Assembly (NCBI GenBank): GCA_035387745.1
Contig: DAOOON010000005.1
Location: 1-14,313, forward strand
Direction of reading: 5' to 3'
DNA: 14,313 nucleotides
Source of the DNA: an archaeon
GTDB lineage: Archaea > Iainarchaeota > Iainarchaeia > Iainarchaeales > CSSED10-239
In this document: piece after piece, positions 109 to 14,313 of the stretch
Layout of the letters: each line of letters opens with the position of its first letter
Position numbering within the stretch: position 1 is the first letter of the stretch
Translations under genes and position numbers: made by a program
The notes under the pieces: generated by a model
The model's database searches: none
What the model saw: the letters and a program-made list of their open reading frames with translations, nothing else
Told to the model about the DNA's origin: nothing

Positions 109-576
109 ATGGTATTATACAAATATTGTTCAAGATGTTATTCTTTAAATATTTCAAGAGACCCAAATTCTAATAATCAGAAATGTATGCAATGCGGTAA
201 TATTGGGATTATGCCTCAAGATAGTATTGATAAGATTAATGTTATGAAAAAATCAAAAGATGGGCAAAGATATGCAGCAGCATCTCAAAGTGCAAGACCT
301 TTAAGAACTGGTAGTCCAGGTAATGATTGTGAGGTTATTAGAAAGAAGGACGACCCTTATAATGACGATATTGACGAAATCGAAGTTCCAAAATCTAAAG
401 ATAATTTTGAAGACGATGAAGAACCAGAAGACAATTTAGAATCTAGGCAATCAAATATTATGAAAAGATCATCTCAGCAGCCAACGCCTGAGAGACACGG
501 GCTTTCTCCAAAAAGCAATCTTTCAGCAAAAGAAAGATTAAAGGAAAAGGGCGGGAAAGACTGGGATTTAGTTTAA
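109..576 (+). CDS. Hypothetical zinc-ribbon protein with an acidic low-complexity C-terminal part
   Basis: ATG at 109 with AGGTGA at 99-104; 155 aa. The N-terminus carries CxxC-x15-CxxC (CSRC...CMQC), a four-Cys zinc-ribbon signature. The remaining ~110 aa are D/E/K/S/P-rich and look disordered. No family recognised. Confidence 0.6.
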   Translation: MVLYKYCSRCYSLNISRDPNSNNQKCMQCGNIGIMPQDSIDKINVMKKSKDGQRYAAASQSARPLRTGSPGNDCEVIRKKDDPYNDDIDEIEVPKSKDNFEDDEEPEDNLESRQSNIMKRSSQQPTPERHGLSPKSNLSAKERLKEKGGKDWDLV

Positions 577-2074: not shown

Positions 2075-4297
2075 ATGCCTGATAAGTATAAAAAATTCAA
2101 GGTCTCAACAGAGAATCCTGGCGAAATTTATAGTTCTATATCAGTGGATTCTAGAGATTTTTCTAAACCTTCAGACAAGCTTACAAAAAGAACATCTGAT
2201 AAATATGTTACTTTATGTAAAAAAATATACCAAAAATTTCCAAGCCTTGGGGTAAATGGGAAATATAACGAAGAATACCAAAAAGCAATTGATTTTCTTG
2301 ACTGGGACTTAACTGCAGAAGAATATACTGCAACCACTAAACTTGTTTTGTTTGGAGGGCTATTTATTACATTGTTTATTTCAGGATTATCTTATGCTTT
2401 TCTATATACTATCCTGTCAGAAGCCTTTGGTAATTCTATGATGGCTTTATTTTTGATATTTGGACTACCAGCAGTTATTTTTATTTTTGTTTTTCTTTCA
2501 TTTCAGAAATATCCATTAAAGAAAGTTGCTGATGAGAAGATAAAAGCACTAACTTTTGTTCCTGAAATTTTAGGTTATATGATAATGTCTATGAAGTTAG
2601 TGCCTAATCTAGAAAAAGCAATAGAATTTGCTTCAGAACATGGACATGGAAAGATTGCTGAGGATCTTAAAAAATTACTTTGGGAAGTAAAGGTCGGAAT
2701 AAAAAACAGTGTTGCCGAAGGATTAGATGATTTAGCTTATCGCTGGGGAGATATTTCTATAGAATTAAAGAAAGGATTAATGAAGATTAGAGCATCAGTT
2801 ATTGAATCTTCAGAAAGCAAGAGATATCAACTTCTTGATCAGACAATGTCTGAAACTCTAGAGTCTGTAAAAGGCAAATTAGAAGATTATGCAAGAACTT
2901 TAAATCAGCCAGCAACAATTATGTTTTATCTTGGAATATTATTGCCTTTATTATTGATTATTGTTTTACCTGTTGGCTCTGCATTTTCTGGTTCTGCTCT
3001 TGCTCAACCAATTTATTTAATTTTAATTTATAATGTAATTATACCATTAGCTTGTTTTTTCTATGCTCAAGGGGTTATTAAAAAAAGGCCACCAACCTAC
3101 AATCCACCAAACATACCTTATGATTTTCCAGGGCTGCCAAAAAAGAATCATTTAAGAGTTAAGAATGCTCAAATTAATGTTTTTATAATAATTGCAATAC
3201 TTCTTGTAAGTTGTGCAGTTATTGGTTTTACGCTACAAAACGCCTATGGTGTGACAAGAGAAAAGATTTTAGAAAGAGAACAGGGCACGACTACACCAAA
3301 TTGGGATTGTACAAGAGAAGAAAGACAACAACAGCTTCTAGATCCTGCCTTTATATGTGCTGATGAAAGAAATTTTTGGCAAGATCCTAAAAATTCTATA
3401 ACTCCTTATTATCTAATATTTTTTATATTGTTTGCAGTTGCTGCTTCCATTTCTTTGTGGGCATATGCCACAAGTGTCTATAAAAGAAAAATACAACTAG
3501 CAACTGAAAATCAAGAAAAAGAATTTAAAGATGCTCTTTATATTATTGCAAGTAGACTTGGAGAAAACAAGCCAATAGAAGATGCTTTTGAGCATACCAG
3601 AAGATTTTTACCTAAGTCTACAGTTGCAAAGGATATTTTTGGTAAAACTGTAGATAATATTAGAGTCTTAGGTCTAACTCTTCAGTCAGCAGTTTTTGAT
3701 AGAAATTATGGTGCTTTAAAGAACAATCCATCAAGAATAATAACAAGTGCCATGCAATTGGTTGTTGATTCTGTGCAGATGGGAGTTAATGTTGCTGCAA
3801 AAACTTTAATTTCATATTCTATGCAGCTAAGAAATACAGACGAGATCAATCGTTTGCTTTCTATTCTGATTGCCGAAATTACAGGAACACTAAATAGTAT
3901 GGCTAAGTTTATTGGCCCAATTATCCTTGGTGTAACAACAACTCTTCATAAGGTGGTTATTTCTACTCTAGCATCAGTTGCAAGTTCTGGGGCAATACAG
4001 GACATGACTCAATCTCTAGAAGGAATAAATACTGCAGAACTTGGAATGGATTTAACGTCTGTATCTTCTTTTGGTACAGCAATCAATGTTGAGGTTATTG
4101 GTAAACTTGCAAGTGCAACTTCTTTTACAATTATTGTTGCGATTTATTTGATTGAGATTGTTCTAATAATGACTTATTTTACAACAATGATTGAGCAAGA
4201 AAATATGACATTAGTAAAATATAGGATTTCACAAACTCTTCCTGTTGCTGTAATTTTGTTTATAATTACAGTGATATTAGCAAACATGGTATTATGA
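2075..4297 (+). CDS. FlaJ/TadC/PilC-like polytopic platform protein of a type IV pilus-like system (two T2SSF-like domains)
   Basis: 740 aa counted from ATG 2075 (MPDKYKK...). The track ORF starts at 2015, but its first 20 codons read through AT-rich promoter-like sequence (ctttataaatatatttt). About 9 predicted TM helices. Two helical cytoplasmic segments each follow a basic stretch and precede TM helices: roughly 2537-2974 (KALTFVPEILGYMIMSMKLVPNLEKAIEFASEHGHGKIAEDL...GLDDLAYRW) and roughly 3512-3964 (KEFKDALYIIASRLGENKPIEDAFEHTRRFLP...). This repeats the GspF/T2SSF domain pattern. The stop overlaps the next gene start (ATGA, 4294-4297). Confidence 0.7.
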   Translation: MPDKYKKFKVSTENPGEIYSSISVDSRDFSKPSDKLTKRTSDKYVTLCKKIYQKFPSLGVNGKYNEEYQKAIDFLDWDLTAEEYTATTKLVLFGGLFITLFISGLSYAFLYTILSEAFGNSMMALFLIFGLPAVIFIFVFLSFQKYPLKKVADEKIKALTFVPEILGYMIMSMKLVPNLEKAIEFASEHGHGKIAEDLKKLLWEVKVGIKNSVAEGLDDLAYRWGDISIELKKGLMKIRASVIESSESKRYQLLDQTMSETLESVKGKLEDYARTLNQPATIMFYLGILLPLLLIIVLPVGSAFSGSALAQPIYLILIYNVIIPLACFFYAQGVIKKRPPTYNPPNIPYDFPGLPKKNHLRVKNAQINVFIIIAILLVSCAVIGFTLQNAYGVTREKILEREQGTTTPNWDCTREERQQQLLDPAFICADERNFWQDPKNSITPYYLIFFILFAVAASISLWAYATSVYKRKIQLATENQEKEFKDALYIIASRLGENKPIEDAFEHTRRFLPKSTVAKDIFGKTVDNIRVLGLTLQSAVFDRNYGALKNNPSRIITSAMQLVVDSVQMGVNVAAKTLISYSMQLRNTDEINRLLSILIAEITGTLNSMAKFIGPIILGVTTTLHKVVISTLASVASSGAIQDMTQSLEGINTAELGMDLTSVSSFGTAINVEVIGKLASATSFTIIVAIYLIEIVLIMTYFTTMIEQENMTLVKYRISQTLPVAVILFIITVILANMVL

Positions 4298-4836
4298 ATT
4301 TTAAATTAAGTAAAAAAGGAGATGATTCAGCTTCTGAAGCCTATAGGCTACTTATTGGATTTATTCTTGGTGCAGCTATTCTTGTTATTATTATGAATAT
4401 GATTAACAGTACACAAAACCAATCAATATTAATAAGTAATCAGAAACTAAAAGAAGGGCTAGTCTCTGCAGTAAAGAGTACAGGAACAAGTGCAAAAACT
4501 CCTTTTGTTATTGAGGATTTAATGCTTAAAGGAAGTATCTCTAAAACTACAATTACAAATTATACAGGTCTTCCAGAAGAATGTATGGCTTTTGTTGCTG
4601 GTCCAAGGCTTTTTTCCGAAAATGACTTTAATATTATAAGAATAAAACCGAGATATTTGAAAATGGATGTTTGGGCATATTGTGATTTTATGCCCCCAGG
4701 AACGACACAGCTACCAGATGGATTAGATACAAACACGCAGGGGCAGCTTACACCAGATCCTGACGATTGTCCGACATACTGTGTATTTTTCTTTAATGTT
4801 AAACCAGATAATGGGCTTTATACTACAACCTCTTAA
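4294..4836 (+). CDS. Pilin-like protein with an atypical class III signal peptide
   Basis: 180 aa, translationally coupled to the platform gene. The N-terminus MNFKLSKKG|DDSASEAYRLLIGFILGAAILVIIMNMI has basic residues, then G, then an S-x-E-xxx-L-like motif, then a ~20 aa hydrophobic helix. The mature part has 4 Cys and an NYT sequon. The globular domain was not recognised. Confidence 0.6.
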   Translation: MNFKLSKKGDDSASEAYRLLIGFILGAAILVIIMNMINSTQNQSILISNQKLKEGLVSAVKSTGTSAKTPFVIEDLMLKGSISKTTITNYTGLPEECMAFVAGPRLFSENDFNIIRIKPRYLKMDVWAYCDFMPPGTTQLPDGLDTNTQGQLTPDPDDCPTYCVFFFNVKPDNGLYTTTS

Positions 4837-4903: not shown

Positions 4904-5398
4904 ATGAACATCTTTACTAAAATTTTATTTATTCTTTTAGCAATTGTAATACTTATACTTGGCTTTATTGTTGGAACCTTTATCTTAACTTTTATATTTG
5001 TATTATTAATCTTAATGACTTTATTGTTTGTGATTATTTGGTTATTTAATAATCTCGTAAGCCTATTTAAAAGTAGCATAGCTAAACTTATCTTTAAGTC
5101 TGTATTCTCTATGGTCGCTACTTATGGTTTAATTACAATATTGTGGTTATTTACTGGTAAGTTCTTTTTACAGATGGATAAAACAATAGCACTTAGTGTT
5201 ATTTGGGTTATTACGGTTTTAATCTTTGGGGTATTGTGGTATTTATTACACATAAGAAAGCATTCAAAGAAGCACCAATATCTTTGGGATGACTATAAGA
5301 GCACTCCAGATAAACTAGATAGTTGGGATGTTCTTTTAATGCTTGTATTGCCATCAATATTAGTTTATATATTTAATTTTGCTCATGCGATAATTTGA
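4904..5398 (+). CDS. Small polytopic membrane protein (about 5 TM), unknown function
   Basis: The track ORF begins at GTG 4892. ATG 4904 (MNIFTKILF...) lies 8 nt after GTGA and is the more likely start. The protein is almost entirely hydrophobic helices with one basic loop (HIRKHSKKHQ). No GxGD or other catalytic motif was seen. Confidence 0.55.
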   Translation: MNIFTKILFILLAIVILILGFIVGTFILTFIFVLLILMTLLFVIIWLFNNLVSLFKSSIAKLIFKSVFSMVATYGLITILWLFTGKFFLQMDKTIALSVIWVITVLIFGVLWYLLHIRKHSKKHQYLWDDYKSTPDKLDSWDVLLMLVLPSILVYIFNFAHAII

Positions 5399-5399
5399 G

Positions 5400-5422
5400 T
5401 TTAGGTTAAAAAACAACCTAAA
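5400..5422 (+). terminator. Hairpin immediately after the 5398 stop (candidate terminator or RNA-stability element)
   Basis: tttaggtt (5400-5407) pairs perfectly with aacctaaa (5415-5422) around a 7-nt loop. A T5 run follows at about 5446-5450. The stem is AT-rich and weak. Confidence 0.3.
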
Positions 5423-5516
5423 ATAAAGATTTACAATCAAGCTAGTTTTTGGTTTATTATTAACTTTAATTTTATTATTAATATAATTATAATTCAATAA
5501 ACCTTGCAATATCAAT

Positions 5517-5531
5517 AGCTTTTTAAAAGCT
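5517..5531. promoter_or_regulatory. Palindrome AGCTTTT-T-AAAAGCT in the long intergenic region upstream of 5600 (candidate operator)
   Basis: 7-bp arms around one central base, centred ~76 nt upstream of ATG 5600. A related string (aagctttaaaaag, 6395-6407) sits ~83 nt upstream of the paralog start at 6484. This could be chance in AT-rich DNA. Confidence 0.25.
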
Positions 5532-5599
5532 TATATCTTCTATTTCTTTTATTTAATCTTAGTACTAAATACTATTTTAAATAAAATTAGTGAAAATAT

Positions 5600-6385
5600 A
5601 TGAAAAACACAAAAAAAGAAGATCAAGAATACCTTGATTCAATGTTAGAAAAGCACAACATATCTACAAAATACGATAATGAATATTATAGAAAGTTAGA
5701 TAATACAATTTTACAATGGTGTCCATTTGTATTAATATTATTTATTATTCTTTCTATTTTATGGTCTTCTATAGTCGGCAGTAATAAACAAATAATTAGT
5801 TTTTTTATATTTACTGTAATATTTATTTTTGCAGTACTTTATATAATTTTTTCTTTTTTATTTTGGATTGTGGAGTTGTTATCTAAAAAAACTAAAAATT
5901 ATAAGTTTAATTTAATAGTAAAATTATCAATTTCAATTATTTTAGCAATATTAATTACATATACTGTATCTACCCCAATTTGTGCTGGTTGTGGAGGGAG
6001 TACTCCAACAATAGCAACGACACAATTATTAAAATCTTTAATTGATAATCCAGGAGCAGAAAGTTGTACATATCCTGTTACATTTACTATATCAAAATCC
6101 ACACTTTCAGCAGAAAGCATAACAAGAGATACGGGGTTAGAGCCTGAGCAAGTTTATTTTGCCAATCCTGAAGACATAGTAAATTTTGATGCAATTGATT
6201 CTCAATTACTAAAATATACTGCCACATCAAGCAAAAAAGTAGCAATTTGTGCTATTTGTTCGCAAGATGGCAAAACCGGATTAGAGCAAGCACTTCAAGA
6301 AAACGGCATAAGCAACACAACAATAAATTCAATAATAGAAGGAGAAACCATTTGTGCAGTTTATCCAAGAAAATCAGCAAATTAA
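5600..6385 (+). CDS. Membrane-tethered paralog of the 6484-7008 pilin (three N-terminal TM helices plus a shared Cys-containing globular domain)
   Basis: 261 aa; ATG at 5600 with GTGA at 5590-5593. Residues ~137-261 align with residues ~45-174 of the next ORF (LIDNPGAESCTYPVTFTISKSTLSAESIT vs QINNPGAESCTDPVTFTRSKSTLSAEGIT; ...GETICAVYPRK vs ...GETVCVIYPRK). All four Cys are conserved. The N-terminal 95 aa (a cytoplasmic segment plus 2 TM helices) have no counterpart in the paralog. Confidence 0.65.
   Translation: MKNTKKEDQEYLDSMLEKHNISTKYDNEYYRKLDNTILQWCPFVLILFIILSILWSSIVGSNKQIISFFIFTVIFIFAVLYIIFSFLFWIVELLSKKTKNYKFNLIVKLSISIILAILITYTVSTPICAGCGGSTPTIATTQLLKSLIDNPGAESCTYPVTFTISKSTLSAESITRDTGLEPEQVYFANPEDIVNFDAIDSQLLKYTATSSKKVAICAICSQDGKTGLEQALQENGISNTTINSIIEGETICAVYPRKSAN
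6045..6120 (+). repeat. Dispersed near-identical 76-nt block, copy 1 (inside the 5600-6385 CDS)
   Basis: Hand alignment with 6653-6728 gives 69 of 76 identical positions, including most synonymous sites. Flanking homologous coding sequence is far more diverged. Confidence 0.85.
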
Positions 6386-6483
6386 ATATATAAGAAGCTT
6401 TAAAAAGATTTTGTTAATATTATTTCATTAATATATTTATATTAAATAGAGTAAATAAAAAATAAAAAAGGTGAAAACAAATT

Positions 6484-7008
6484 ATGTTAAAATTAACAAA
6501 GAAAGGACAAGCCTCATCAACATTTCAATTGTTGATTGCCGCAGTTGTTGCTCTTGCAATTTTAGGTGTTTTATTAAATATACTAGGGGTTCTTCCAGGA
6601 CTAAATAAAGACCCTACAAAGACTACAAAAACACTTTTAACTGATCAAATAAATAATCCAGGAGCAGAAAGCTGTACAGACCCAGTTACATTTACTAGAT
6701 CAAAATCAACACTTTCAGCAGAAGGCATTACCGTTAATACCGGGATAGAAATGACACAAGTATATTTTGATAATCCAGAGACAATATCCAATTTTGATCC
6801 AAAGGACAGTATATTAAGATATGGAGCGAGCGGCTCAAAAAAAGTAATGATGTGTATTGTTTGTTCTTCAGATAAAAGCACATTAGATCAGGCAATTGAG
6901 GCAAATCAAAAGACAGACCCAGCAGATAATTTTAAAACTCAACCCACAGAATTATCTTCTGGGGAAACAGTATGTGTAATATATCCAAGAAAGACATCTG
7001 CTTCATAA
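6484..7008 (+). CDS. Type IV pilin-like protein with a class III signal peptide
   Basis: 174 aa; AGGTGA at 6469-6474, 9 nt upstream of the ATG. The N-terminus MLKLTKKG|QASSTFQLLIAAVVALAILGVLLNILGV fits basic-G|Q plus a hydrophobic helix (the Q-x-S motif of PF04021-type signals). The mature domain has 4 Cys. Confidence 0.75.
   Translation: MLKLTKKGQASSTFQLLIAAVVALAILGVLLNILGVLPGLNKDPTKTTKTLLTDQINNPGAESCTDPVTFTRSKSTLSAEGITVNTGIEMTQVYFDNPETISNFDPKDSILRYGASGSKKVMMCIVCSSDKSTLDQAIEANQKTDPADNFKTQPTELSSGETVCVIYPRKTSAS
6653..6728 (+). repeat. Dispersed near-identical 76-nt block, copy 2 (inside the 6484-7008 CDS)
   Basis: See copy 1. The shared string starts ataatccaggagcagaaag and ends cactttcagcagaa[a/g]gcat. 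Confidence 0.85.
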
Positions 7009-7033: not shown

Positions 7034-7273
7034 ATGAACTTAAAACAAGAGCTTAAGAGATTATGGCTTGATAAAAGAGCGCAAGGGGATGGCGCTTCCA
7101 CCCTCTATATGCTTATTATCATAGCTATAGTTGCTCTTGTTCTAATTGCAGTCATTAAACCTATGTTTAATAGCAGTATGAAAACTTCAATGAATGTCGC
7201 AGACTTGCCTAACCAAGGTACAACTGCGACCCCAACAGTCAATTCTACAGCACCAACTACTGGCTCAAGCTGA
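7034..7273 (+). CDS. Short pilin-like protein (Flp/EpdE-like size) with a T/P/S-rich tail
   Basis: 79 aa; AGGT at 7025-7028. MNLKQELKRLWLDKRA|QGDGASTLYMLIIIAIVALVLIAVIKP, followed by only ~35 aa ending NQGTTATPTVNSTAPTTGSS. Two N-glycosylation sequons (NSS, NST). No Cys. Confidence 0.65.
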   Translation: MNLKQELKRLWLDKRAQGDGASTLYMLIIIAIVALVLIAVIKPMFNSSMKTSMNVADLPNQGTTATPTVNSTAPTTGSS

Positions 7274-7292
7274 TTTCTTTAAAACAACAAGC

Positions 7293-7303
7293 TTTTTAAA
7301 TTC
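7293..7303 (+). promoter_or_regulatory. TATA-box-like element (ctttttaaatt) about 27 nt upstream of ATG 7326, possible internal promoter giving a leaderless mRNA
   Basis: The 52-nt gap 7274-7325 has no Shine-Dalgarno-like motif, unlike neighbouring genes. The TTTTTAAA element is preceded by an A-rich BRE-like stretch (aaaacaacaa) at the archaeal -26/-27 spacing. TATA-like strings are common in this AT-rich DNA. Confidence 0.3.
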
Positions 7304-7325
7304 TTTTTCTATATTTATTTCTAAG

Positions 7326-7928
7326 ATGAACAAAAACAAAAATATATTTTTGATAAAAAGTAGTAAGGCTCAAGCAAGCGCGCCTTTTGAAGTTCTTGTA
7401 GCTGTTATTCTTATGGGCTTTGTTATTATGGCAGGTACCTGGGCTTTAATCAACCTAAACCAAAGCGTTTGTGTAGGTAATAAACGACAAAGCATGAGCG
7501 AAATGAAAGGTATAATCGAAGATATAATAATGGGTTCTGATTTAGCAGTTAAAAATGTGAAATTTGATATACAGCCTTGTTTTAATGAAAAATTTGAAGC
7601 AATAACCTTAAAGACCTATACTAACGAAACACTCTGTACTTCTTATTGTAATGCAGGAGAAACCTGTACCTTAATGGAATATGTTTATGATGATGATAAA
7701 ACTACGAAACGACCTATTGCTCCTATGTGTTTAAATCTACCAACTGCAATTAATTATGCAAGTTCTGCTGAAGGTTGTGAAGAAAATTCTGAGGAATGGC
7801 TAGCTTTGAATTTTGGTGGCAGTAATCCAAATTCTATATTAACAAGCGGCAGCTATAAGATTTTCATGAGAAGTCAGACAGGAACAGATTCTATAAGAGA
7901 ATTGTGTTTTTTAAAAAAAATTGATTAA
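7326..7928 (+). CDS. Pilin-like protein with a class III signal peptide (Cys-rich globular domain)
   Basis: 200 aa from ATG 7326. The track ORF starts at 7194 but overlaps the previous gene out of frame. The N-terminus MNKNKNIFLIKSSKA|QASAPFEVLVAVILMGFVIMAGTWALI fits Q-x-S-x-x-x-E-x-L. 8 Cys and NQS/NET sequons in the mature part. Confidence 0.7.
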   Translation: MNKNKNIFLIKSSKAQASAPFEVLVAVILMGFVIMAGTWALINLNQSVCVGNKRQSMSEMKGIIEDIIMGSDLAVKNVKFDIQPCFNEKFEAITLKTYTNETLCTSYCNAGETCTLMEYVYDDDKTTKRPIAPMCLNLPTAINYASSAEGCEENSEEWLALNFGGSNPNSILTSGSYKIFMRSQTGTDSIRELCFLKKID

Positions 7929-7930
7929 AA

Positions 7931-8587
7931 ATGATTGAGTTTTCTTTATCAAAATTAAATTTATTAATTTTTGTAACAGCAATTGCTGCAATAGTAATAT
8001 TCTTTATAGCAACATTTAATTCTAGTATGAAAACAAGACAAAGCTATGAATTGGTTTACAAAGTGGGAAAAGAAATAAAGACCGGGATAGAAAACGAAAG
8101 CTATTGTACTGTAAAATTTATAACAATACCAAAAACCATACAAACAAATTCTGGAAATTCTGATACCTTTAATATGAGATATAAATTAAATGTTTCTGCA
8201 TATTCTGTAGGCGATGATTCAAAAAGGTTAGTTCTTACTGTAATGGATAGAAAAGAAAAACCAAAAATCTATGCTGCTTACGATATTGACTATAATGGTT
8301 CAGTTGCGTTATATGCATCAGAAAGCTGTACAAGTTTTCCAAACTGTACAATTACCAAGTCAGAAAATTTTTCTGTAGATTTTGATCCATCTAAAAGAGA
8401 TTCGATAGACACACAAATACTTTTTGCAAAGATTATTTCAAATGGAAACCCCATAATTTTCTTAATTCCGTGTCTTGAAAAAAAAGGAATATATACTTGC
8501 AGAGAATTTATAAATACGAAAGATTTAAAGACGTTGATTCCTTGTTTAAATATAGTTAGTGATTTAGTAAATTATACTGATAATTAG
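7931..8587 (+). CDS. N-terminally anchored secreted protein, possible minor pilin or assembly factor
   Basis: 218 aa; starts 2 nt after the previous stop. The N-terminus MIEFSLSKLNLLIFVTAIAAIVIFFIATFNSSMKT is a hydrophobic helix without a clear [KR]G|Q site. 6 Cys and 7 N-x-S/T sequons (NSS, NES, NVS, NGS, NCT, NFS, NYT) suggest an extracellular glycoprotein. Confidence 0.55.
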   Translation: MIEFSLSKLNLLIFVTAIAAIVIFFIATFNSSMKTRQSYELVYKVGKEIKTGIENESYCTVKFITIPKTIQTNSGNSDTFNMRYKLNVSAYSVGDDSKRLVLTVMDRKEKPKIYAAYDIDYNGSVALYASESCTSFPNCTITKSENFSVDFDPSKRDSIDTQILFAKIISNGNPIIFLIPCLEKKGIYTCREFINTKDLKTLIPCLNIVSDLVNYTDN

Positions 8588-8595
8588 GATTAAAC

Positions 8596-9108
8596 ATGAA
8601 TAACAAAAAAGGATATATTGGCGCAATTGGAGACGATCTCCCAAGCTTAATACCAATATTTGTAGGTTTAACTATCTTTTTTGCAGTTTTTTTAAATACC
8701 TATAATGTTTATAGAAATAACACAGATCTTTATTCCTTAAGAAATGATGCAATTAATATTTCAGGAATAATAAAAGAAAATCCAATTATTTCAGACCAAA
8801 ATCAATTTATAAAATCTTGTAACAGAGTTAAAACAAAATACAATTGGAATGCGTTTATTATACCGTTAGATCTTAATAGTGAAAATTATAACGGCTTAAC
8901 TATTGATGACTTAGAAGTAGAAAACATTATGAAACATTGGGCAGAAACCGAATCTCAACCTAGAAAATTAATATGTGATTCTGAGGGATTAGGGGCTTTA
9001 AGAACTGCATTACAAACAAAAGATGTAACTGTCTATAAATATCCAATAACTGTTCAACAACAATTTTATGTAGAACCTGCATGGATTTACATTGTTGTGT
9101 GGAAATGA
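8596..9108 (+). CDS. Pilin-like protein with an atypical N-terminus
   Basis: 170 aa; AGGA at 8586-8589. MNNKKG|YIGAIGDDLPSLIPIFVGLTIFFAVFL has basic-G followed by a hydrophobic helix. 2 Cys, NNT and NIS sequons. The domain was not recognised. Confidence 0.55.
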   Translation: MNNKKGYIGAIGDDLPSLIPIFVGLTIFFAVFLNTYNVYRNNTDLYSLRNDAINISGIIKENPIISDQNQFIKSCNRVKTKYNWNAFIIPLDLNSENYNGLTIDDLEVENIMKHWAETESQPRKLICDSEGLGALRTALQTKDVTVYKYPITVQQQFYVEPAWIYIVVWK

Positions 9109-9114
9109 TATAAA

Positions 9115-9918
9115 ATGCAATTAATAAAAATAAAAACGAGAAAAGGTCAAGCAGCAATAACAGATGCTTTATTTTTCTTAATTATAATTGTCGCCCTGTC
9201 TGTATTAATGTTTAGATATTCTTCTACTTATGGCAACAGAATAGAACAAGCAAGTTCTGATTTATATTATAAAGAATATACAAATTCGGTTCTAAAAACC
9301 ATATTTTATGTATCTGCACCTTTAGATTTTGATTTAAATCTTGAAAAAACCAAACAAAACGATTATTTAATGGCTCTTGTAAAACAAGATTATTATGCAC
9401 AGGGAAAACTTGGTTTTTCTGATATGAATGATCTAAAAACAGATAATTATTTAGACATTGCAAAATACAATTTATTTCATACAATTAAAGCCACTATGCG
9501 TCCATTAGAATCACAAGATTATTTGTTCTATATTTTTAATAATGAAGATTCTAATTTTTTATATTTTACAATTAAGAACACACACTTTGAAATATCAGAA
9601 GCTAATCCAAATAGTGGAGTAGATGCGGTTAGAGGAGTTACAAGATACATACTAACAGAAAATCCATATCATTATTATCTTTGTGATCCTGAAAGTTATG
9701 AAGATGTAAGAGCTGTTGTTTCTAGGTCTCCAAAGATTTTTTCCTCTTCTATACCTTTGTCGTTTACATATAATTATAGTACTTATGCACAACTTGGGAT
9801 AAAAGAAGATATTGTTACTTCCACTTTTGCAATGTGGCCAGCAACAGTCGATATAAATAGCGATTTGCTTATTCCATTAAATTGTAAAGAAGTTGATCCC
9901 CTATCTAGCAATCCATAA
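9115..9918 (+). CDS. Pilin-like protein with a class III signal peptide (largest of the set)
   Basis: 267 aa. MQLIKIKTRKG|QAAITDALFFLIIIVALSVLMF is a clean basic-G|Q plus hydrophobic helix. 2 Cys in the mature part. Last gene of the same-strand run. Confidence 0.7.
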   Translation: MQLIKIKTRKGQAAITDALFFLIIIVALSVLMFRYSSTYGNRIEQASSDLYYKEYTNSVLKTIFYVSAPLDFDLNLEKTKQNDYLMALVKQDYYAQGKLGFSDMNDLKTDNYLDIAKYNLFHTIKATMRPLESQDYLFYIFNNEDSNFLYFTIKNTHFEISEANPNSGVDAVRGVTRYILTENPYHYYLCDPESYEDVRAVVSRSPKIFSSSIPLSFTYNYSTYAQLGIKEDIVTSTFAMWPATVDINSDLLIPLNCKEVDPLSSNP

Positions 9919-9939: not shown

Positions 9940-10674
9940 TTAAAACTTCAAACCTAATTCGTCATCAGAATCTGCGTCTTCTGCATCATCATCTCCAAAA
10001 TCTAATTTTAATTCTTCTTTTTTAGGTTTTGATGATTCTTTATTCTTTACTATTTTATCTTTAATATTATCTTCTGATTTTTTTGTTGTTTCTTTACTTT
10101 TCTTTTCTTTTGCGTTTTGAATTGCTTTTTCAACTATTTTTTCTTTTTTTGCCTTTTCTCTTATATCTTCTTTTTTATTTTCTTCTACAACATCATCTAT
10201 TACTTTCTCTAGCTCTTCTCTGTCATTTAAGAAATCATAATTTTCTTTGGTTTTAACAGTATTTGTTGAAGTACTGCCAGTTATATTTCTAGAACCCCTA
10301 TAATGTGCGTTGCTTTGAACAACTTGCTTAACACTTTCTTGAGTAACATTAACATCTCTTACTGATAATTGAGAATATATCATTTCTGCGATTTCATCAA
10401 TATCTGGATCAATTCTGTTTTTTAGGTCTATGAGTATTTTATCTATAATTTTTTGCTTTTCTTCAGAATTTAATTTTTTATTTTCTTTTATAGATTTTAA
10501 TGTTTTTTCTGGTATTTCTCTTGTTGATTTTAATTCTGTTTCTTTTTTTTCAGGAACCATTTTTTTTGTATCTTTTTTAGGTTTAGTTATTGGTGTGTCA
10601 CCATAAACCATTTCTCCATTTTCTTCTTTTCTATAAAATCTGCGCTCTCTTCTCTTAATTTTGTTAATATCCAT
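9940..10674 (-). CDS. K/E-rich low-complexity protein with an acidic C-terminal tail (hypothetical)
   Basis: 244 aa from ATG 10674 (MDINKIKRRERRF...). GAGGA (reverse complement of 10681-10685) lies 6 nt upstream. The track start at 10701 has no such motif. Two long K/E-rich stretches flank a short ordinary-composition core (IDEIAEMIYSQLSVRDVNVTQESVKQVV). The protein ends ...FGDDDAEDADSDDELGLKF. Confidence 0.6.
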   Translation of the reverse strand: MDINKIKRRERRFYRKEENGEMVYGDTPITKPKKDTKKMVPEKKETELKSTREIPEKTLKSIKENKKLNSEEKQKIIDKILIDLKNRIDPDIDEIAEMIYSQLSVRDVNVTQESVKQVVQSNAHYRGSRNITGSTSTNTVKTKENYDFLNDREELEKVIDDVVEENKKEDIREKAKKEKIVEKAIQNAKEKKSKETTKKSEDNIKDKIVKNKESSKPKKEELKLDFGDDDAEDADSDDELGLKF

Positions 10675-10773
10675 AATTATTCCTCTTTTTTCTATAAACA
10701 TATAAGTATATAATATTTAAAAACTATTATGCTAATATATATTTAACTAAAATATTATAAAAAGGCATAAATA

Positions 10774-11310
10774 ATGAATGAATTATTATTAAGCACACTA
10801 AATTACATATGGGTTTTTATTAAATTATTACTATTTAGTGCTTTGTTGGCTCTGCCATTTATTGGTTTAACCTATCTTTTCCAGAAAAAATTTAATTGGT
10901 TAAGACTTGATAAAAAGCTAAGCTTTGCAAAGTCTTTGTTTATTATTATTTTTGTTATTTCATATATTGCTTTAATAATAGTTTATTTTGTGCCGGTATT
11001 AGATAAGTTCTCAACATTTACTTTCTTTGAAGGCGTCTTATTTGTATTGATACAAATTGTAAGGTTATTTTTAGTAAATTTATTATTTACTGGAATGTTT
11101 TTTATTATTGCAATGTTTATATCAATGTTATATGATTCCTTTATGGAAAAAAAAGAAAAAAAGAAGAAAACAAAAAAGCAAAAATCAGAAAAATTAGTTT
11201 TTATAGACCTTTGGAAAAGTTTTGCTATGGTTTTGTTTGTTGTTATGTTATTCTTAATAATAATATTCCCATCATTAATTGCAATGATTTTATATTTGAT
11301 ATTTATGTAA
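10774..11310 (+). CDS. Small polytopic membrane protein (4-5 TM) with a poly-Lys cytoplasmic loop
   Basis: 178 aa, ATG at 10774. Hydrophobic helices are interrupted by MEKKEKKKKTKKQKSEK. The stop is 12 nt before the start of the giant ORF, suggesting co-transcription. Confidence 0.6.
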   Translation: MNELLLSTLNYIWVFIKLLLFSALLALPFIGLTYLFQKKFNWLRLDKKLSFAKSLFIIIFVISYIALIIVYFVPVLDKFSTFTFFEGVLFVLIQIVRLFLVNLLFTGMFFIIAMFISMLYDSFMEKKEKKKKTKKQKSEKLVFIDLWKSFAMVLFVVMLFLIIIFPSLIAMILYLIFM

Positions 11311-11322
11311 GGTGTTTTTTAA

Positions 11323-14313
11323 ATGAACGAATCAATTAAAAGAGTTTGGATTTTTTTCTTTTTAATACTTTTCTGCAATAGTGTATTTGCTTATGGATAT
11401 AATCCGGATAACAGCTATTATTTTGCAGAAAAAGAAATAAGTTCTGATGGCGTTGTCTTTGATAGAGGCAATGGCTGTATGACTAAAGAGTTATCAGAAA
11501 AAGAAGTTAATGCTCTTTGGGGAGAAATATTAACAAAGGGATTCTCTGCAGATCTTTTAGATTCAGATCAAGAAGCAAACACTAACAGAGAAAATCTAGA
11601 TAAAAATAATTTGATTGTTGCAGATGCTGATGCTAAATCAGGAGATGTTGGTGCAAAGATGCAAGTTCCCTCTCAACAAATCAACCCTCTTGAAGTTCCA
11701 ATGTTAATAGGTAAAACCTGTTATGGGTCTTATGATTTTGGACTTAATTTAAATGAAACATTAAGAGTTGGCAGATGTGATCTTGATAGTAATACAAGCG
11801 ATTGTTATCTTAGTATGCCTGGGCAATACAGACAAAACAATTTAAGTGCTTCAAATGTTGGAGGATTCTTTAAAGAAGTAAAAGTTGTAGGAAAAGATTT
11901 AATTTCTGGAATTAAAGAAACAGTAATAAAAAATGAAGAAGATGAAATTCCTGGTAAAGAAAATATGGGGCCATTTTCTGATTTATCTTCACGGGAGTTA
12001 AGTAAAATAGAACAGACCATGCTAGCAAACGATGCAAATACAATAAATACAGAAACCTGGGATGCTGTAAGTGATGAAGTTCTAGTAAATAGTTCTTTAA
12101 CTCAAAATTTTGCAGCAACAATGCAAACTACCTGTAGTGGAGAAAATTGTTATATTAACACTTATTCTTTATTTGACAAAATGTTTAATCAATATTTTTC
12201 TGCAGATATGGTTTACAGTTCTGTATCTCCATTTTTATTTAATGGTGCCGCAAGGATATTTAATGTTCCAGGAGTTAAAAATGCAGTCTTAAAACCAATA
12301 AATACTTTAAAAGATAAAGGGCTAATAAAAGACGGCGGTTTTTTAGATACTCTAACTAAAGATCCAGCATTATTTGTTAAAGACCCTTTTGGAAGAATTA
12401 GTCAATCAATAAAAGCAAGCAAATATGCAAACGCTGACGTAGATAGATTCGTAGAATTTAATCTGGCGCACAATGAAATAATGGGAAGAGACATAGCTCA
12501 CTACAATATGAAAGGATTTACAGATAATATGTTTGATTCGGTACAAGATGGTATTGGAGCAACAAGTAAATTTAATAAAGAAATGATTTTAGATGGTACT
12601 AAAAACTTAAGTGCAGCACAAAGACGCGTAGCAACAGATGTAGCTCAGGAATATGCAGATAAACTATATTCTTCTAGCGCATTATTAAAATCAAAACTTG
12701 CAAATCCCATAACTAGTGATGCAATAAACATCTATAAAAAAGGTATTGCAAATGGAGCAAATATAAATGAAATATTAAGCAATTTAACTGAAGAACAATA
12801 TAAAGCATTAGATGATTATGTATATACGGCTACAAAGCTTTCTAAAAGTTTAGAAATTGCAATGGATGGAAAATTTAAATGGAAAGATTCTCTATTTGAC
12901 ACTGCAACAATAAATAATAAAGTTGCAAAAGTATATGATAATGGTGTAGAAAGGGAAATCAAAATTGAAAATTATAAATCATTAGATGGCGGATCAAATG
13001 CTTTGTATAAAAAAGAAATTTTACAAGATGGTTCAGTAAAGATAGATACTAAGGTTTATGGTGATGAATTCAAATTATTTGAATATGATAGAGTAAATCA
13101 AGTCTCTCAAATAAAGGGTGCTGGTAAATCTGTTGTAACAGAAAATATGAAAGTTCCACTTGCTGGTGGGGAAGTTAATAGACAACGACTAAAGGCGGTG
13201 TATAAAGATTTAGACAAGTCTGGAGCAATAAAAATAAATGATGCGGCCGGATTAACACCATTTCAAAAAAACACTACTGCTTTTGTTTCTTTTACAGATT
13301 CGGTTTCTGGACCTCAAACTATATCCATTCATGATTATTTTACTAATTCATACACCCCTTTGCCTGGAACTATAGAACTATATCCAAAAGGCTATAATAC
13401 AATATTAATAGATGATGTAGAAATTTTTGATACAGTGCTGGGAAAAAAAGTAAAAATAAAAGATGCAATTAATCCAAACACCGGAAAACCATATGGCCCA
13501 GGGTATTTTGATTTAGATCCTTTAGAAGTAGCGGCTCCAGTTCTTATTCCTCCGTCTTCCGGAAGTACGGTTGTAAAAAAAATAGACGATACCGCAAATC
13601 GTTTTAGTGACGTCTTAAAAACAATGAGTCATAAAGAATGGGTTTCTGGTAAAGGAAGAGACGCAATTAATCAGTTAATGAGAAATTATAATGGTGGATC
13701 CTATCAAAGGTTTTTAACACAAAATCTATTAGTTTTTGGACTTAATTTTGCATACTGGGAAGTTAAATCTGGTGGTGCAACAATATTTGGAGATACAATT
13801 GGAATGACTAGATGGTCAATGTATCAATTACCTGAAACTTATACTGCTTTAAAAATTAAGCACAAAGAAAACGGAGAGATTTATAAAGACGCATATTTAG
13901 ATTTCTTTGCTAATACTGGTTCAGATCAAGGAGATCTTTTCATGAAATATTTAAATTCTATGTTATTTTGGTCTGTTAATGTAACCTCAAAAGTAGTTGA
14001 AGGTGTAGGTGCCGATTGGTCTACTTCTGTTGTTGATTTCCTAAATGCACGATTACAAGGCCAAATTAGAAGATCAGAAACAGACGATATAGTATTAATT
14101 ACAAATAATATTTCTTCAGGTTGTAACAATCAATTTTGTAATTTTACAATCGGCGCAAACTATATTGATCAAAACACAATGAACGCATCTTTATCTGCTA
14201 TAGAGCTAGAAGAATTAGAAAAAGAAAATAAAGATGCCAAAGAAAATACAGAAGATGCAGATGCCAAAGAAAATACAGAAGATGCAGATGCCAAAGAAAA
14301 TACAGAAGATGCA
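11323..14313 (+). CDS. Giant secreted protein of unknown function, 3' end truncated by the window (at least 997 codons)
   Basis: Not in the supplied ORF track because it has no stop in the window. My codon-by-codon translation from ATG 11323 (AAGGTG at 11309-11314, 8 nt upstream) found no stop through base 14313. The N-terminus MNESIKRVWIFFFLILFCNSVFA|YGYNP is a typical Sec signal peptide. No later TM segment was seen. 8 Cys lie in close pairs around a ~660 aa Cys-free core. The visible end is a DAKENTEDA tandem repeat. Confidence 0.85.
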   Translation, partial: MNESIKRVWIFFFLILFCNSVFAYGYNPDNSYYFAEKEISSDGVVFDRGNGCMTKELSEKEVNALWGEILTKGFSADLLDSDQEANTNRENLDKNNLIVADADAKSGDVGAKMQVPSQQINPLEVPMLIGKTCYGSYDFGLNLNETLRVGRCDLDSNTSDCYLSMPGQYRQNNLSASNVGGFFKEVKVVGKDLISGIKETVIKNEEDEIPGKENMGPFSDLSSRELSKIEQTMLANDANTINTETWDAVSDEVLVNSSLTQNFAATMQTTCSGENCYINTYSLFDKMFNQYFSADMVYSSVSPFLFNGAARIFNVPGVKNAVLKPINTLKDKGLIKDGGFLDTLTKDPALFVKDPFGRISQSIKASKYANADVDRFVEFNLAHNEIMGRDIAHYNMKGFTDNMFDSVQDGIGATSKFNKEMILDGTKNLSAAQRRVATDVAQEYADKLYSSSALLKSKLANPITSDAINIYKKGIANGANINEILSNLTEEQYKALDDYVYTATKLSKSLEIAMDGKFKWKDSLFDTATINNKVAKVYDNGVEREIKIENYKSLDGGSNALYKKEILQDGSVKIDTKVYGDEFKLFEYDRVNQVSQIKGAGKSVVTENMKVPLAGGEVNRQRLKAVYKDLDKSGAIKINDAAGLTPFQKNTTAFVSFTDSVSGPQTISIHDYFTNSYTPLPGTIELYPKGYNTILIDDVEIFDTVLGKKVKIKDAINPNTGKPYGPGYFDLDPLEVAAPVLIPPSSGSTVVKKIDDTANRFSDVLKTMSHKEWVSGKGRDAINQLMRNYNGGSYQRFLTQNLLVFGLNFAYWEVKSGGATIFGDTIGMTRWSMYQLPETYTALKIKHKENGEIYKDAYLDFFANTGSDQGDLFMKYLNSMLFWSVNVTSKVVEGVGADWSTSVVDFLNARLQGQIRRSETDDIVLITNNISSGCNNQFCNFTIGANYIDQNTMNASLSAIELEELEKENKDAKENTEDADAKENTEDADAKENTEDA
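14233..14313 (+). repeat. Perfect 27-bp tandem repeat, at least 3 copies (gatgccaaagaaaatacagaagatgca), in frame and encoding DAKENTEDA
   Basis: Units at 14233-14259, 14260-14286 and 14287-14313 are identical base for base. The array runs off the window edge, so the copy number is unknown. Confidence 0.95.

Follow-up and report, generated by a model that had tools for sequence, protein, structure and literature searches.

The open reading frame at 5600–6385 encodes what is, on the evidence of its sequence, a three-pass membrane protein that carries a paralog of a pilin head outside the membrane, behind a three-helix anchor specific to its locus. Its host is an uncultured DPANN archaeon, and the gene lies within a pilus gene cluster, directly upstream of a pilin gene and downstream of the gene for a TadC-like platform, in the stretch of 14,313 nucleotides analysed here (the window; Table 1). 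What might such a protein do? Our preferred reading, which we hold tentatively and which draws on analogy as well as on sequence, is that it stays in the membrane as a pilus accessory, where it would show its pilin head at the base of the filament.

Table 1. Features of the fused gene and its surroundings in the window: feature, coordinates, strand, and basis or remark (an arrow marks the class III cleavage position).
TadC/PilC-like platform, 740 aa from ATG 2075	2075–4297	+	weak PF00482 T2SSF match, E 0.021
Class-III-signal protein (KKG↓DDSASEAYRLLIGF), putative minor pilin	4294–4836	+	sequence; conserved in L001–L009
Conserved multi-TM membrane protein, 164 aa from ATG 4904	4904–5398	+	directly upstream of the fused gene
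Conserved promoter-like element (ATCAATAGCTTTTTAAAAGCTTATATCTTCTATTTCTTTT)	5511–5550	+	upstream of the fused gene
Shine-Dalgarno-like AGTGA	5589–5593	+	6 nt ahead of ATG 5600; kept in L002
Fused gene: 3-TM anchor plus pilin-head paralog	5600–6385	+	ORF, 261 aa (stop codon within range), full-length homologs
Cytoplasmic N-terminal segment, residues 1–36	5600–5707	+	motif KKEDQEYxDS...YxKLD; predicted helical (AF2)
TM1, residues ~37–59	5708–5776	+	hydropathy; within AF2 helix 4–58
TM2, residues ~64–94	5789–5881	+	hydropathy, AF2; conserved S-F-L-F-W-I-x-G-L end
Candidate internal starts GTG 5870, TTG 5876	5870–5878	+	both rejected
Cytoplasmic loop SKKTKNYKFN, residues 95–104	5882–5911	+	at the class-III cleavage-site position, without K/R-G
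TM3, residues 105–125	5912–5974	+	collinear with the pilin N-terminal helix
Linker STPICAGCGG-ST, residues 126–135	5975–6004	+	low confidence; C-x-G-C motif
Extracellular head, residues 136–261	6005–6382	+	paralogous to the pilin head; four conserved Cys
Conserved promoter-like element of the pilin gene (AAGCTTTAAAAAGATTTTGTTAATATTATTTCATTAATATATTT...)	6395–6445	+	conserved in the window, L001, L002 and L012
Class-III-signal pilin, 174 aa	6484–7008	+	MLKLTKKG↓QASSTFQLLIAAVVALAILGVLL, then head; AF2 pLDDT 85.2
Five further small proteins	7034–9918	+	class-III-like N-termini in four (7034, 7326, 8596, 9115)

Is the frame real? T-rich, AT-rich DNA (GC is 0.24 at this locus) easily gives rise to pseudo-helices rich in Phe, Ile and Leu, and a sequencing or assembly error might have joined two genes, or translation might begin at an internal GTG or TTG, with the T-rich frame upstream as a by-product. 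A homolog search found the same fused architecture in at least ten independent assemblies (L001–L007, P0004–6, P0026 and P0040), drawn from Logan, JGI, ENA and GenBank, and in about 17 of the best 150 representatives (clusters at 50% identity) from an exhaustive HMM search of a library of 1.84 billion proteins. The frame is open and collinear throughout, in clusters down to 23% identity, and the agreement of so many independent assemblies rules out misassembly. Full-length homologs are 49–73% identical, profile matches cover the entire architecture of anchor and head, and the AF2 model has a mean pLDDT of 83.7. The N-terminal extension evolves at an omega of 0.35–0.45, below 0.5 and similar to the outer domain, and the remaining two frames across it are rich in stops.

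The start of the gene is likewise marked. The promoter-like element upstream, a putative archaeal BRE/TATA element, is near-identical in the window, L001 and L002, whereas the flanking intergenic DNA diverges, and a Shine-Dalgarno-like AGTGA precedes ATG 5600, to be compared with GGTGA at the pilin start (6484). As for internal starts, the GTG at 5870 is replaced by GTA in L002 and by TTT in L001. The TTG at 5876 stays TTG in three loci, as an internal start would predict, but the GGAG before it abuts with zero spacing, and L001 lacks a Shine-Dalgarno sequence there. Even if either codon were used, the product would still lack a cleavage site. The earlier note had held that the fusion is genuine and that no internal start is plausible, and both statements stand. 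Judged by these comparisons, the ORF is a genuine gene, conserved and under purifying selection, and an artefactual origin is effectively refuted.

The head of the protein closely matches that of the pilin encoded next to it. BLASTP aligns it to the product of ORF 6484–7008 at 54–55% identity over 119 aa (E 1e-39), and hhalign aligns the two heads with an E-value of 2e-46. The four cysteines at A156/217/220/252 of the fused protein correspond to B64/124/127/164 of the pilin and are conserved across the family, bearing out the proposal that the two proteins share a four-Cys globular domain. At the DNA level, a direct repeat links 6005–6141 to 6613–6749, and similarity between the two genes starts only at 6005, that is, at residue 136. 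The head is modelled by AF2 with a pLDDT above 90 as an alpha/beta domain, with helices at 136–147 and 224–234 plus strands. For neither model, fused or pilin, did Foldseek return a PDB match at E ≤ 0.001, and the PDB sequence-profile search gave none for the head; since the PDB thus offers no structural match to either model, the label ‘pilin’ rests on the class III signal and the locus context. Neither the anchor nor the head belongs to a Pfam or NCBIfam family. Only sub-threshold transmembrane noise was found (Pfam DUF4181, 17 bits against a curated cutoff of 25.4; NCBIfam MAG0110, 18.6 against 98), and such matches of 15 members were scattered over unrelated transmembrane families.

The locus context is that of a pilus. 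The neighbouring pilin has a class III signal (KKG↓Q) and 77 homolog clusters; across 25 sequences, down to 27% identity, its G8, its Q9 and 14 positions of the helix do not vary. The conserved element ahead of it suggests that it has a separate promoter. The start of the platform gene at ATG 2075 was inferred from orthologs of 740–741 aa. In the orthologous locus L010, a platform gene (PF00482) preceded by a T2SSE ATPase gene (PF00437) lies directly upstream; the ATPase gene falls outside this window. Downstream of the pilin, the gene order across 7034–9918 is kept in L001, L003, L004, L006, L010 and L012; the one small protein there without a class-III-like N-terminus (7931) has a hydrophobic, uncleavable-looking one. 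The window proteins include no archaellum gene family and no prepilin peptidase, and an Rfam search of the window gave no RNA family.

In the fused protein, a cytoplasmic segment and two transmembrane helices precede the third helix, as the earlier note described; hydropathy and the AF2 model agree on helices at 4–58 (containing TM1), 64–97 (TM2) and 102–124 (TM3). Because the loop between TM2 and TM3 contains four lysines, the positive-inside rule would place it in the cytoplasm, so that the C-terminal domain faces outward. The N-terminal segment (residues 1–36) is under an omega of 0.23–0.39, and its motif is common to most fused members and to the 128-aa anchor-only protein P0093. K108 in TM3 is invariant in the anchor alignment. 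The linker is poorly defined at residues 124–127 (pLDDT below 50), and its C-[AIL]-G-C motif occurs in many family members, although not in all. As a source of the extension we considered the membrane protein genes at 4904–5398 and 10774–11310, and BLASTP showed no similarity to either.

The fused protein appears to be non-cleavable. Archaeal prepilin peptidases cut at the cytoplasmic face, behind leaders of 6–12 aa, and Gly at −1 is critical (PMC4187195). A K/R-G dipeptide is absent from the TM2–TM3 loop of the window protein and from all 15 aligned family members, none of which has G or A at the aligned −1 position. Instead of a short basic leader with K/R at −2 and G/A at −1, the aligned position reads KKTK/NYK and is preceded by about 100 residues and two transmembrane helices. 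The earlier note had the G↓Q dipeptide replaced by T-K in an alignment free of gaps. The dipeptide is indeed missing, but in both the MAFFT and the hhalign alignment the residue facing Gly8 of the pilin is Y101 instead of T98, a register shift of three. The gapless alignment itself does not survive, since the strings compared were of 23 and 22 residues, so that KK and AIL cannot both be in register.

Could the protein nevertheless be a precursor? A peptidase cut in the TM2–TM3 loop would yield a polymerisable minor pilin and a fragment with two helices, and lipoprotein-type cleavage and lipidation at C-x-G-C would yield a lipid-anchored head. The basic loop before TM3 and the PICAGCGG after it resemble the n-h-lipobox order of such signals, other members have CIGC or CLGC, and the head does occur behind bona fide lipoboxes; PibD-type peptidases, moreover, accept more substitutions than FlaK (PMC4187195). 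We nevertheless regard processing as very unlikely, because no precedent is known for a leader that spans about 100 aa and includes two helices, TM3 lacks the conserved pilin helix, and the −1 residue is unsuitable in every member. Nor does the sequence fit the lipobox pattern [LVI][ASTVI][GAS]C: ICAGC comes after an internal helix and has Cys, not L, V or I, at −3, and C-x-G-C is missing in L001, L003, L005, P0040 and P0085.

How closely does TM3 correspond to the pilin helix? In the hhalign comparison, this hydrophobic helix occupies a position collinear with the helix that forms the filament core, as had been suggested. However, when anchors (residues 1–135) were compared with pilin N-termini (1–45) alone, TM3 was the sole match and fell short of significance, with an E-value of 0.14 and a probability of 0.4%. 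What supports the correspondence is therefore its position and collinearity, and not a demonstrable likeness of sequence. The loop and TM3 evolve at an omega of 0.45–0.65, against 0.03–0.18 for the signal and helix of the pilin in the same genome pairs, and they contain no invariant position in the 15-member alignment. TM3 is thus far freer to diverge than the near-invariant pilin helix, which argues against its incorporation into a filament. These observations are consistent with the idea that one outer domain exists in two forms, a canonical cleavable pilin and a version fixed in the membrane.

The divergence of TM3 also bears on the possibility that the protein is a regulator or terminator, that is, a membrane-locked pilin mimic that competes with or senses the pilin pool, capping the base of the filament (for length control or anchoring) or feeding back on pilin supply. 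Its head is 54–69% identical to that of the pilin, which would be enough for mimicry, the fused protein appears unable to leave the membrane, and a promoter-like element separate from that of the pilin would allow independent dosage. On the other hand, helix–helix recognition would be mediated by the invariant pilin helix, to which TM3 has no significant similarity; versions consisting of the anchor only cannot mimic a pilin head; and no signalling domain was found. We consider such a role improbable.

The anchor and the head have separate histories. ORFs of 102–128 aa that encode the anchor only are found at the same locus position in L004, L012, L013 and L014, and with an omega of 0.19–0.34 at dS 0.7–1.4 they are under purifying selection. 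From these sequences, the three-helix anchor is an independent module, with a predicted function of its own. The head is dispensable in some of these anchor-only genomes, an observation that speaks against an accessory role for the fused protein. Fused proteins have traded outer domains with pilin paralogs (bootstrap 99–100): the head of F3_L004 groups with the neighbouring pilin (99/100), that of P0088 with the pilin P0027 (100/100), and monophyly of all fused heads received 0/100. Within the window itself, gene conversion between 6046–6125 and 6649–6728 (nucleotide identity 0.87–0.91) is not supported; the difference at synonymous codons between this tract (18/24) and the remainder (27/46) is not significant (p = 0.2), and conversion is therefore claimed for L004 and P0088 only. 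The proposal that a pilin lost its cleavage site and gained two helices is thus not established, in that a stand-alone anchor gene and swapped outer domains fit the joining of a pilin head to a pre-existing three-helix module at least equally well.

This modularity allows a bolder variant, in which the three-helix anchor is a subunit of the machine, the pilin head is exchangeable, and the fused protein serves as the final subunit at the base, one that resists extraction, ends the filament and fastens it to the membrane. The copy of the head would be renewed again and again by recombination with the pilin gene, and so would go on matching a fast-evolving filament subunit. We know of no such basal terminating subunit described for any type IV filament, and we regard this variant as doubtful.

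The wider distribution of the head raises a further alternative. The synteny around the fused gene is identical in L001, L002, L003, L004, L006 and L007, and L004 carries three tandem copies; L005 has an orphan copy outside the locus, between radA and the gene for a PEP-utilising enzyme. More distant loci such as L009 have no tethered paralog, and this, too, counts against an accessory role. The head family also occurs behind lipobox signals (P0150 LLFGC, P0203 VSGC, P0195 LVGC), on single uncleaved anchors (P0089, P0142, P0180 and L010:5394–5927, the last directly upstream of a pilin) and on anchors of three to more than five helices. The fused protein might be a short-range surface adhesin, whose tethered head recognises the external ligand that the pilus head also binds (a host cell, a surface glycan or another cell's pilus); one binding domain would then be displayed both far from the cell, on the filament, and close to it, on the membrane, and the anchor would be an interchangeable fixing. 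Variable copy number (L004, L005) is unexpected for a stoichiometric part of a machine and possible for a surface protein of this kind, and the lipobox and single-anchor versions suggest that surface display itself may be the selected trait. Repeated exchange of the head with the pilin and its moderately high omega (0.33–0.58) point the same way. A passive tether, however, would need neither an anchor that is conserved and selected even when headless nor a conserved cytoplasmic motif, and the position of the fused gene directly upstream of the pilin is fixed across the clade. We consider an adhesin unlikely, while taking it seriously.

How, then, might a membrane-retained pilus accessory work? 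If the prepilin peptidase leaves the fused protein unprocessed and it is not extracted into the filament core, it would stay membrane-bound, an accessory to the type-IV-filament machine. The anchor might dock inside or alongside either the assembly platform or the pilin pool of the membrane, and the tethered head could make pilin-like head-to-head contacts with the filament at its exit from the membrane. Such contacts could dock, stabilise, anchor or terminate the filament, a role that would be functionally analogous to that of ArlF/ArlG in the archaellum.

How type IV filaments are held in the membrane of archaea that lack a wall and have only an S-layer is poorly understood. To our knowledge, ArlF/ArlG are the only structurally studied subunit-like proteins kept at the base of a filament. 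The fused family would be a second, unrelated case in which the outer domain of a filament subunit is fixed to the membrane, with a polytopic anchor that also exists alone and a head that co-evolves with the pilin by exchange. DPANN archaea have lifestyles thought to depend on cell–cell contact, and the preferred reading, if true, would offer a tractable handle on pilus anchoring or short-range adhesion in them. Pilin-derived proteins of this type will be missed by screens, FlaFind for example, that rely on class III motifs.

Surveys of archaeal type-IV-filament loci have reported pilin-like proteins without class III motifs and small membrane proteins, both presumed to be parts of the assembly machinery (10.64898/2026.04.22.720090; PMC4858521). 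These two surveys describe no polytopic anchor joined to a paralog of a major pilin head, no stand-alone anchor and no exchange of heads, and a keyword search of a library of papers gave no title pointing to such proteins. The fused protein is probably a fresh variation on the known uncleaved pilin-like accessory proteins. Among bacterial systems, the alignment proteins PilN/PilO and GspL/GspM of type IV pili and type II secretion systems are small membrane proteins whose N-terminus, short and conserved, lies in the cytoplasm and whose extracytoplasmic domain sits at the base of the filament. They are bitopic, have ferredoxin-like periplasmic domains and are not pilin paralogs, and no sequence relationship to them was detected in the fused protein. 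Canonical class III pilins of the Epd type, with Gln at +1, resemble the fused protein in that its head is a paralog of such a pilin; the neighbouring pilin (KKG↓QASSTF) carries Gln at +1, as EppA substrates typically do (PMC4187195). The fused protein differs from them in having no short leader and no K/R-G, about 100 residues and two transmembrane helices ahead, and a divergent last helix.

A close comparison is with ArlF/ArlG (FlaF/FlaG), for which a role at the base of the filament has been proposed; FlaF, a monotopic protein, has an Ig-like beta-sandwich and binds the S-layer (PMC4425475). The likenesses are that the gene lies in a type-IV-filament operon beside genes for filament subunits, and that a subunit-related domain without a class III signal is held in the pseudo-periplasm by an uncleaved N-terminal anchor. 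The differences are as follows. First, the fused protein has three transmembrane helices and a conserved cytoplasmic segment. Second, its head is an alpha/beta domain with four cysteines that has no match in Pfam, among PDB sequences or by Foldseek. Third, the fused gene lies in a pilus-type locus without arl genes, its anchor also occurs alone, and its heads are swapped with the pilin. We therefore rejected membership of the ArlF/ArlG family, which is marked by a beta-sandwich domain, a single transmembrane helix and an archaellum operon (ArlH/I/J, archaellins), none of which was found here. The comparison with FlaF/FlaG drawn in the earlier note accordingly holds as an analogy, and fails as a match of fold, sequence or topology. 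Most likely, the fused protein is an analogue of ArlF/ArlG that stands outside their family.

Is the fusion of a three-helix anchor to a pilin-like head (ORF 5600-6385) real? The earlier note took it to be genuine, and several observations bear this out. First, full-length homologs share 49-73% identity with the fused protein; when 1.84 billion representatives were searched exhaustively by profile, 168 relatives emerged, and among the best 150 of these the search for homologs with the same fused architecture, as that note had proposed, found ~17 that span it whole and ~130 short relatives whose own residue 2-4 aligns to the profile position where TM3 starts. Second, gene order is identical across Logan, JGI and GenBank assemblies (related loci L001, L002, L003, L004, L006 and L007). 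Third, the omega of the N-terminal extension (0.35-0.45) is close to that of the head, and its other two frames are full of stops. The claim that there is no internal start also held: where the window has GTG 5870, L002 has GTA and L001 has TTT, TTG 5876 lacks a usable SD, and any internal start would still leave an uncleavable N-terminus. An artefact, whether misjoined genes or an internal start, is essentially excluded.

The intergenic DNA at 5399-5490, upstream of the fused gene, shares homology with the 3' end of an ORF of 79 aa. L002 has this ORF intact (1728-1967), and its resemblance to the TM2-loop-TM3 portion of the anchor is weak (E 0.013); the copy in the window appears to have decayed. 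Divergence within the fused gene is mosaic (window 5600-6385 vs L002:2065-2856), with dS of 0.10-0.17 in the anchor and TM3 and 0.5-0.7 in the linker and head, which suggests recent recombination between the two lineages within the gene.

The 261-aa product (AF2 mean pLDDT 83.7) is a three-pass protein, N-in and head-out. By hydropathy and AF2, a cytoplasmic helical N-terminus is continuous with TM1 (H4-58), followed by TM2 (H64-97) and TM3 (H102-124); because the Lys-rich loop SKKTKNYKFN between TM2 and TM3 is cytoplasmic by the positive-inside rule, the head lies outside. Beyond a low-confidence linker, STPICAGCGG, residues 136-258 form an alpha/beta domain with a confident fold (pLDDT >90) and four conserved Cys, 55% identical to that of the neighbouring pilin (119 aa, E 1e-39), and DNA-level duplication between the two genes is detectable from 6005 on. 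Just after TM3, CAGC (window 5984-5995, residues 129-132 of PICAGCGG, 5978-6001) represents a motif, C-[AIL]-G-C, that is common to many fused members (CAGC, CIGC, CLGC) and missing in L001, L003, L005 and the homolog P0040; either a lipobox-like site or a CxxC redox/disulfide motif is conceivable. Non-canonical processing of the fused protein, including at this recurrent, non-universal site, seems to us quite improbable.

Is TM3 an altered pilin signal? The gapless alignment in the earlier note joined strings of 23 and 22 residues, so both ends cannot match. Its proposal that G|Q had been replaced by T-K stands insofar as neither register contains K/R-G, a motif absent from the fused protein and 15 aligned family members; the residue opposite Gly8, however, is Y101 and not T98 (MAFFT, hhalign). 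When head-free profiles were compared, TM3 was the only segment to align with the pilin N-terminus, with an insignificant score (E 0.14), so that profile alignment did not sustain the claimed homology and the equivalence appears positional rather than demonstrable by sequence. In the pilin N-terminus, G8, Q9 and 14 helix positions are invariant in 25 sequences with identity down to 27%, and omega is 0.03-0.18, whereas in the same genome pairs the loop and TM3 of the fused protein show 0.45-0.65, and no position is invariant across 15 aligned fused members. This contrast argues that TM3 is free of the constraint of a filament core. The pilin N-terminus itself, KGQASSTFQLLIAAVVALAILGVLL (window 6484-6590, pilin-family alignment A4), is unusually strongly conserved, being almost invariant though relatives' heads are only ~27-35% identical. 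In the AF2 model the pilin helix is interrupted, with one part at residues 11-34 and another at 44-56, which recalls the division of alpha1 into alpha1-N and alpha1-C in bacterial pilins; Foldseek with this model returned no pilin match.

How might the fusion have arisen? An anchor-only profile retrieved ORFs that are 102-128 aa long and stop just past TM3. Purifying selection acts on them (omega 0.19-0.34 at dS 0.7-1.4), so the three-TM anchor is a separate module that functions without a head. In L012 the head is cleanly missing, and the pilin promoter element comes after the anchor's stop. The anchors of fused proteins with exchanged heads remain clearly homologous (KKEDxxYxDS, YKKxD, SFLFWIxGL, NYKFxLxVK). 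An NJ tree built on head domains only, with 100 bootstrap replicates, shows the fused heads to be polyphyletic (monophyly 0/100). The head of F3_L004, a fused protein of L004 (6929-7762), pairs with the neighbouring pilin (7850-8374; 99/100). The two are 69% identical and agree in 80% of the degenerate codons they share (within L004:5896-8374), whereas identity of this head to the fused head of the window is 53%; the head of P0088 pairs with pilin P0027 (100/100). These pairings imply that heads are exchanged, through recombination or gene conversion, between the tethered and the polymerisable paralogs, and that the breakpoints fall after TM3. Together with the stand-alone anchors, the unconstrained TM3 and the varied anchors described below, they weaken the account of a pilin that lost its cleavage site and gained two helices, of which the absence of K/R-G stands. 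The joining of a pilin head to a pre-existing three-TM protein of the locus would fit at least as well.

Features of the window and of related loci
Feature	Position	Remark
Promoter-like element, 40 nt	5511-5550	conserved, upstream of ATG 5600
AGTGA SD	before ATG 5600	conserved
TadC/PilC-like platform	2075-4297	weak T2SSF match
Class-III-type N-terminus	4294	KKG|DD
Class-III-type N-terminus, pilin	6484	KKG|QASS
Class-III-type N-terminus	7034	AQG|DG
Class-III-type N-terminus	7326	KA|QASAPFE
Class-III-type N-terminus	8596	KKG|Y
Class-III-type N-terminus	9115	RKG|QAAITD
Anchor-only gene	L012:550-936	directly upstream of pilin
Anchor-only gene	L014:144-458	directly upstream of pilin
Anchor-only gene	L013:4001-4309	beside fused copy
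Anchor-only gene	L004:6604-6927	beside fused copy
Relatives with lipobox or single uncleaved anchor	L010:5394-5927	also P0150, P0195, P0203, P0089, P0142, P0180, P0186

The window (GC ~30%) contains a conserved pilus-type locus, in which the platform is flanked by small proteins, the majority with class-III-type N-termini. In the distant orthologous locus L010, a PF00437 T2SSE ATPase and then the platform lie directly 5' of the same gene series, and the locus is therefore a type-IV-filament system. Named homologs of the pilin come from MAGs of Candidatus Diapherotrites, Ca. Iainarchaeum and Micrarchaeota; the organism is therefore a DPANN archaeon. Compared with L010:195-2483, positions 907-2014 of the window have no ATPase gene beside the platform, and ferredoxin and AP-endonuclease genes lie upstream instead. 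Judging by orthologs, the mechanically called ORF starts 2015, 4892 and 7194 are probably too early, the likelier ones being ATG 2075 (platform, 740 aa), ATG 4904 (164-aa membrane protein) and ATG 7326 (KA|QASAPFE pilin-like protein). All related loci keep at their end a 253-aa highly charged protein with the C-terminus DDELGLKF (9940-10701, - strand) and a multi-TM protein of 178 aa that has the loop KKEKKKKTKK (10774-11310), neither with a Pfam family. A large secreted protein (11323-14313, >997 aa, running past the window's 3' end) bears a signal peptide at its N-terminus and matches nothing in Pfam. Its orthologs in L006-L010 measure 1549-1772 aa and are always downstream of the locus; it may be an adhesin linked to the pilus system.

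What might the fused protein do? Archaeal prepilin peptidases, which cleave on the cytoplasmic side, require Gly at -1 and a leader 6-12 residues long (PMC4187195). The fused protein has neither the peptidase motif nor the constraint of a polymerising helix, and we infer that it escapes processing and stays in the membrane. Our tentative preference is for an accessory associated with the machine. Its tethered head would make contact with the base of the filament and so dock, stabilise, anchor or terminate it. We prefer this reading because the anchor is conserved whether or not a head follows it, bears a conserved cytoplasmic motif and has a fixed place in the operon. The head family also occurs behind lipobox-type signals (LLFGC, LVGC, VSGC), single uncleaved TM anchors (one, in L010, directly upstream of the pilin) and larger polytopic anchors, and so seems to have acquired several modes of membrane attachment, possibly independently. 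Such varied devices, the variable copy number and an orphan copy in L005 speak for the main rival, a short-range surface adhesin, which we nevertheless regard as unlikely given the anchor and operon evidence for an accessory. That orphan (L005:7929-8648, 239 aa), a second fused copy in the MAG carrying L003, is located away from the pilus locus, with radA on one side and the gene of a PEP-utilising enzyme on the other. We consider a regulatory or terminator role rather improbable.

Neither the fused protein nor its four-Cys head has a relative in PDB, Pfam or NCBIfam; the architecture is not described in two archaeal filament surveys (bioRxiv 10.64898/2026.04.22.720090; the 2016 census, PMC4858521), and a keyword literature search gave no title pointing to it. 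The earlier likening to FlaF/FlaG holds as a concept and fails as membership: FlaF is a monotopic Ig-like sandwich protein of archaellum operons, whereas the fused protein crosses the membrane three times and its four-Cys head has an alpha/beta fold, so that helix number, head fold and operon type rule out assignment to ArlF/ArlG. ArlF/ArlG are nonetheless the closest concept, since in them too the filament operon encodes a subunit-like domain that lacks a class III signal and is retained in the membrane (PMC4425475).
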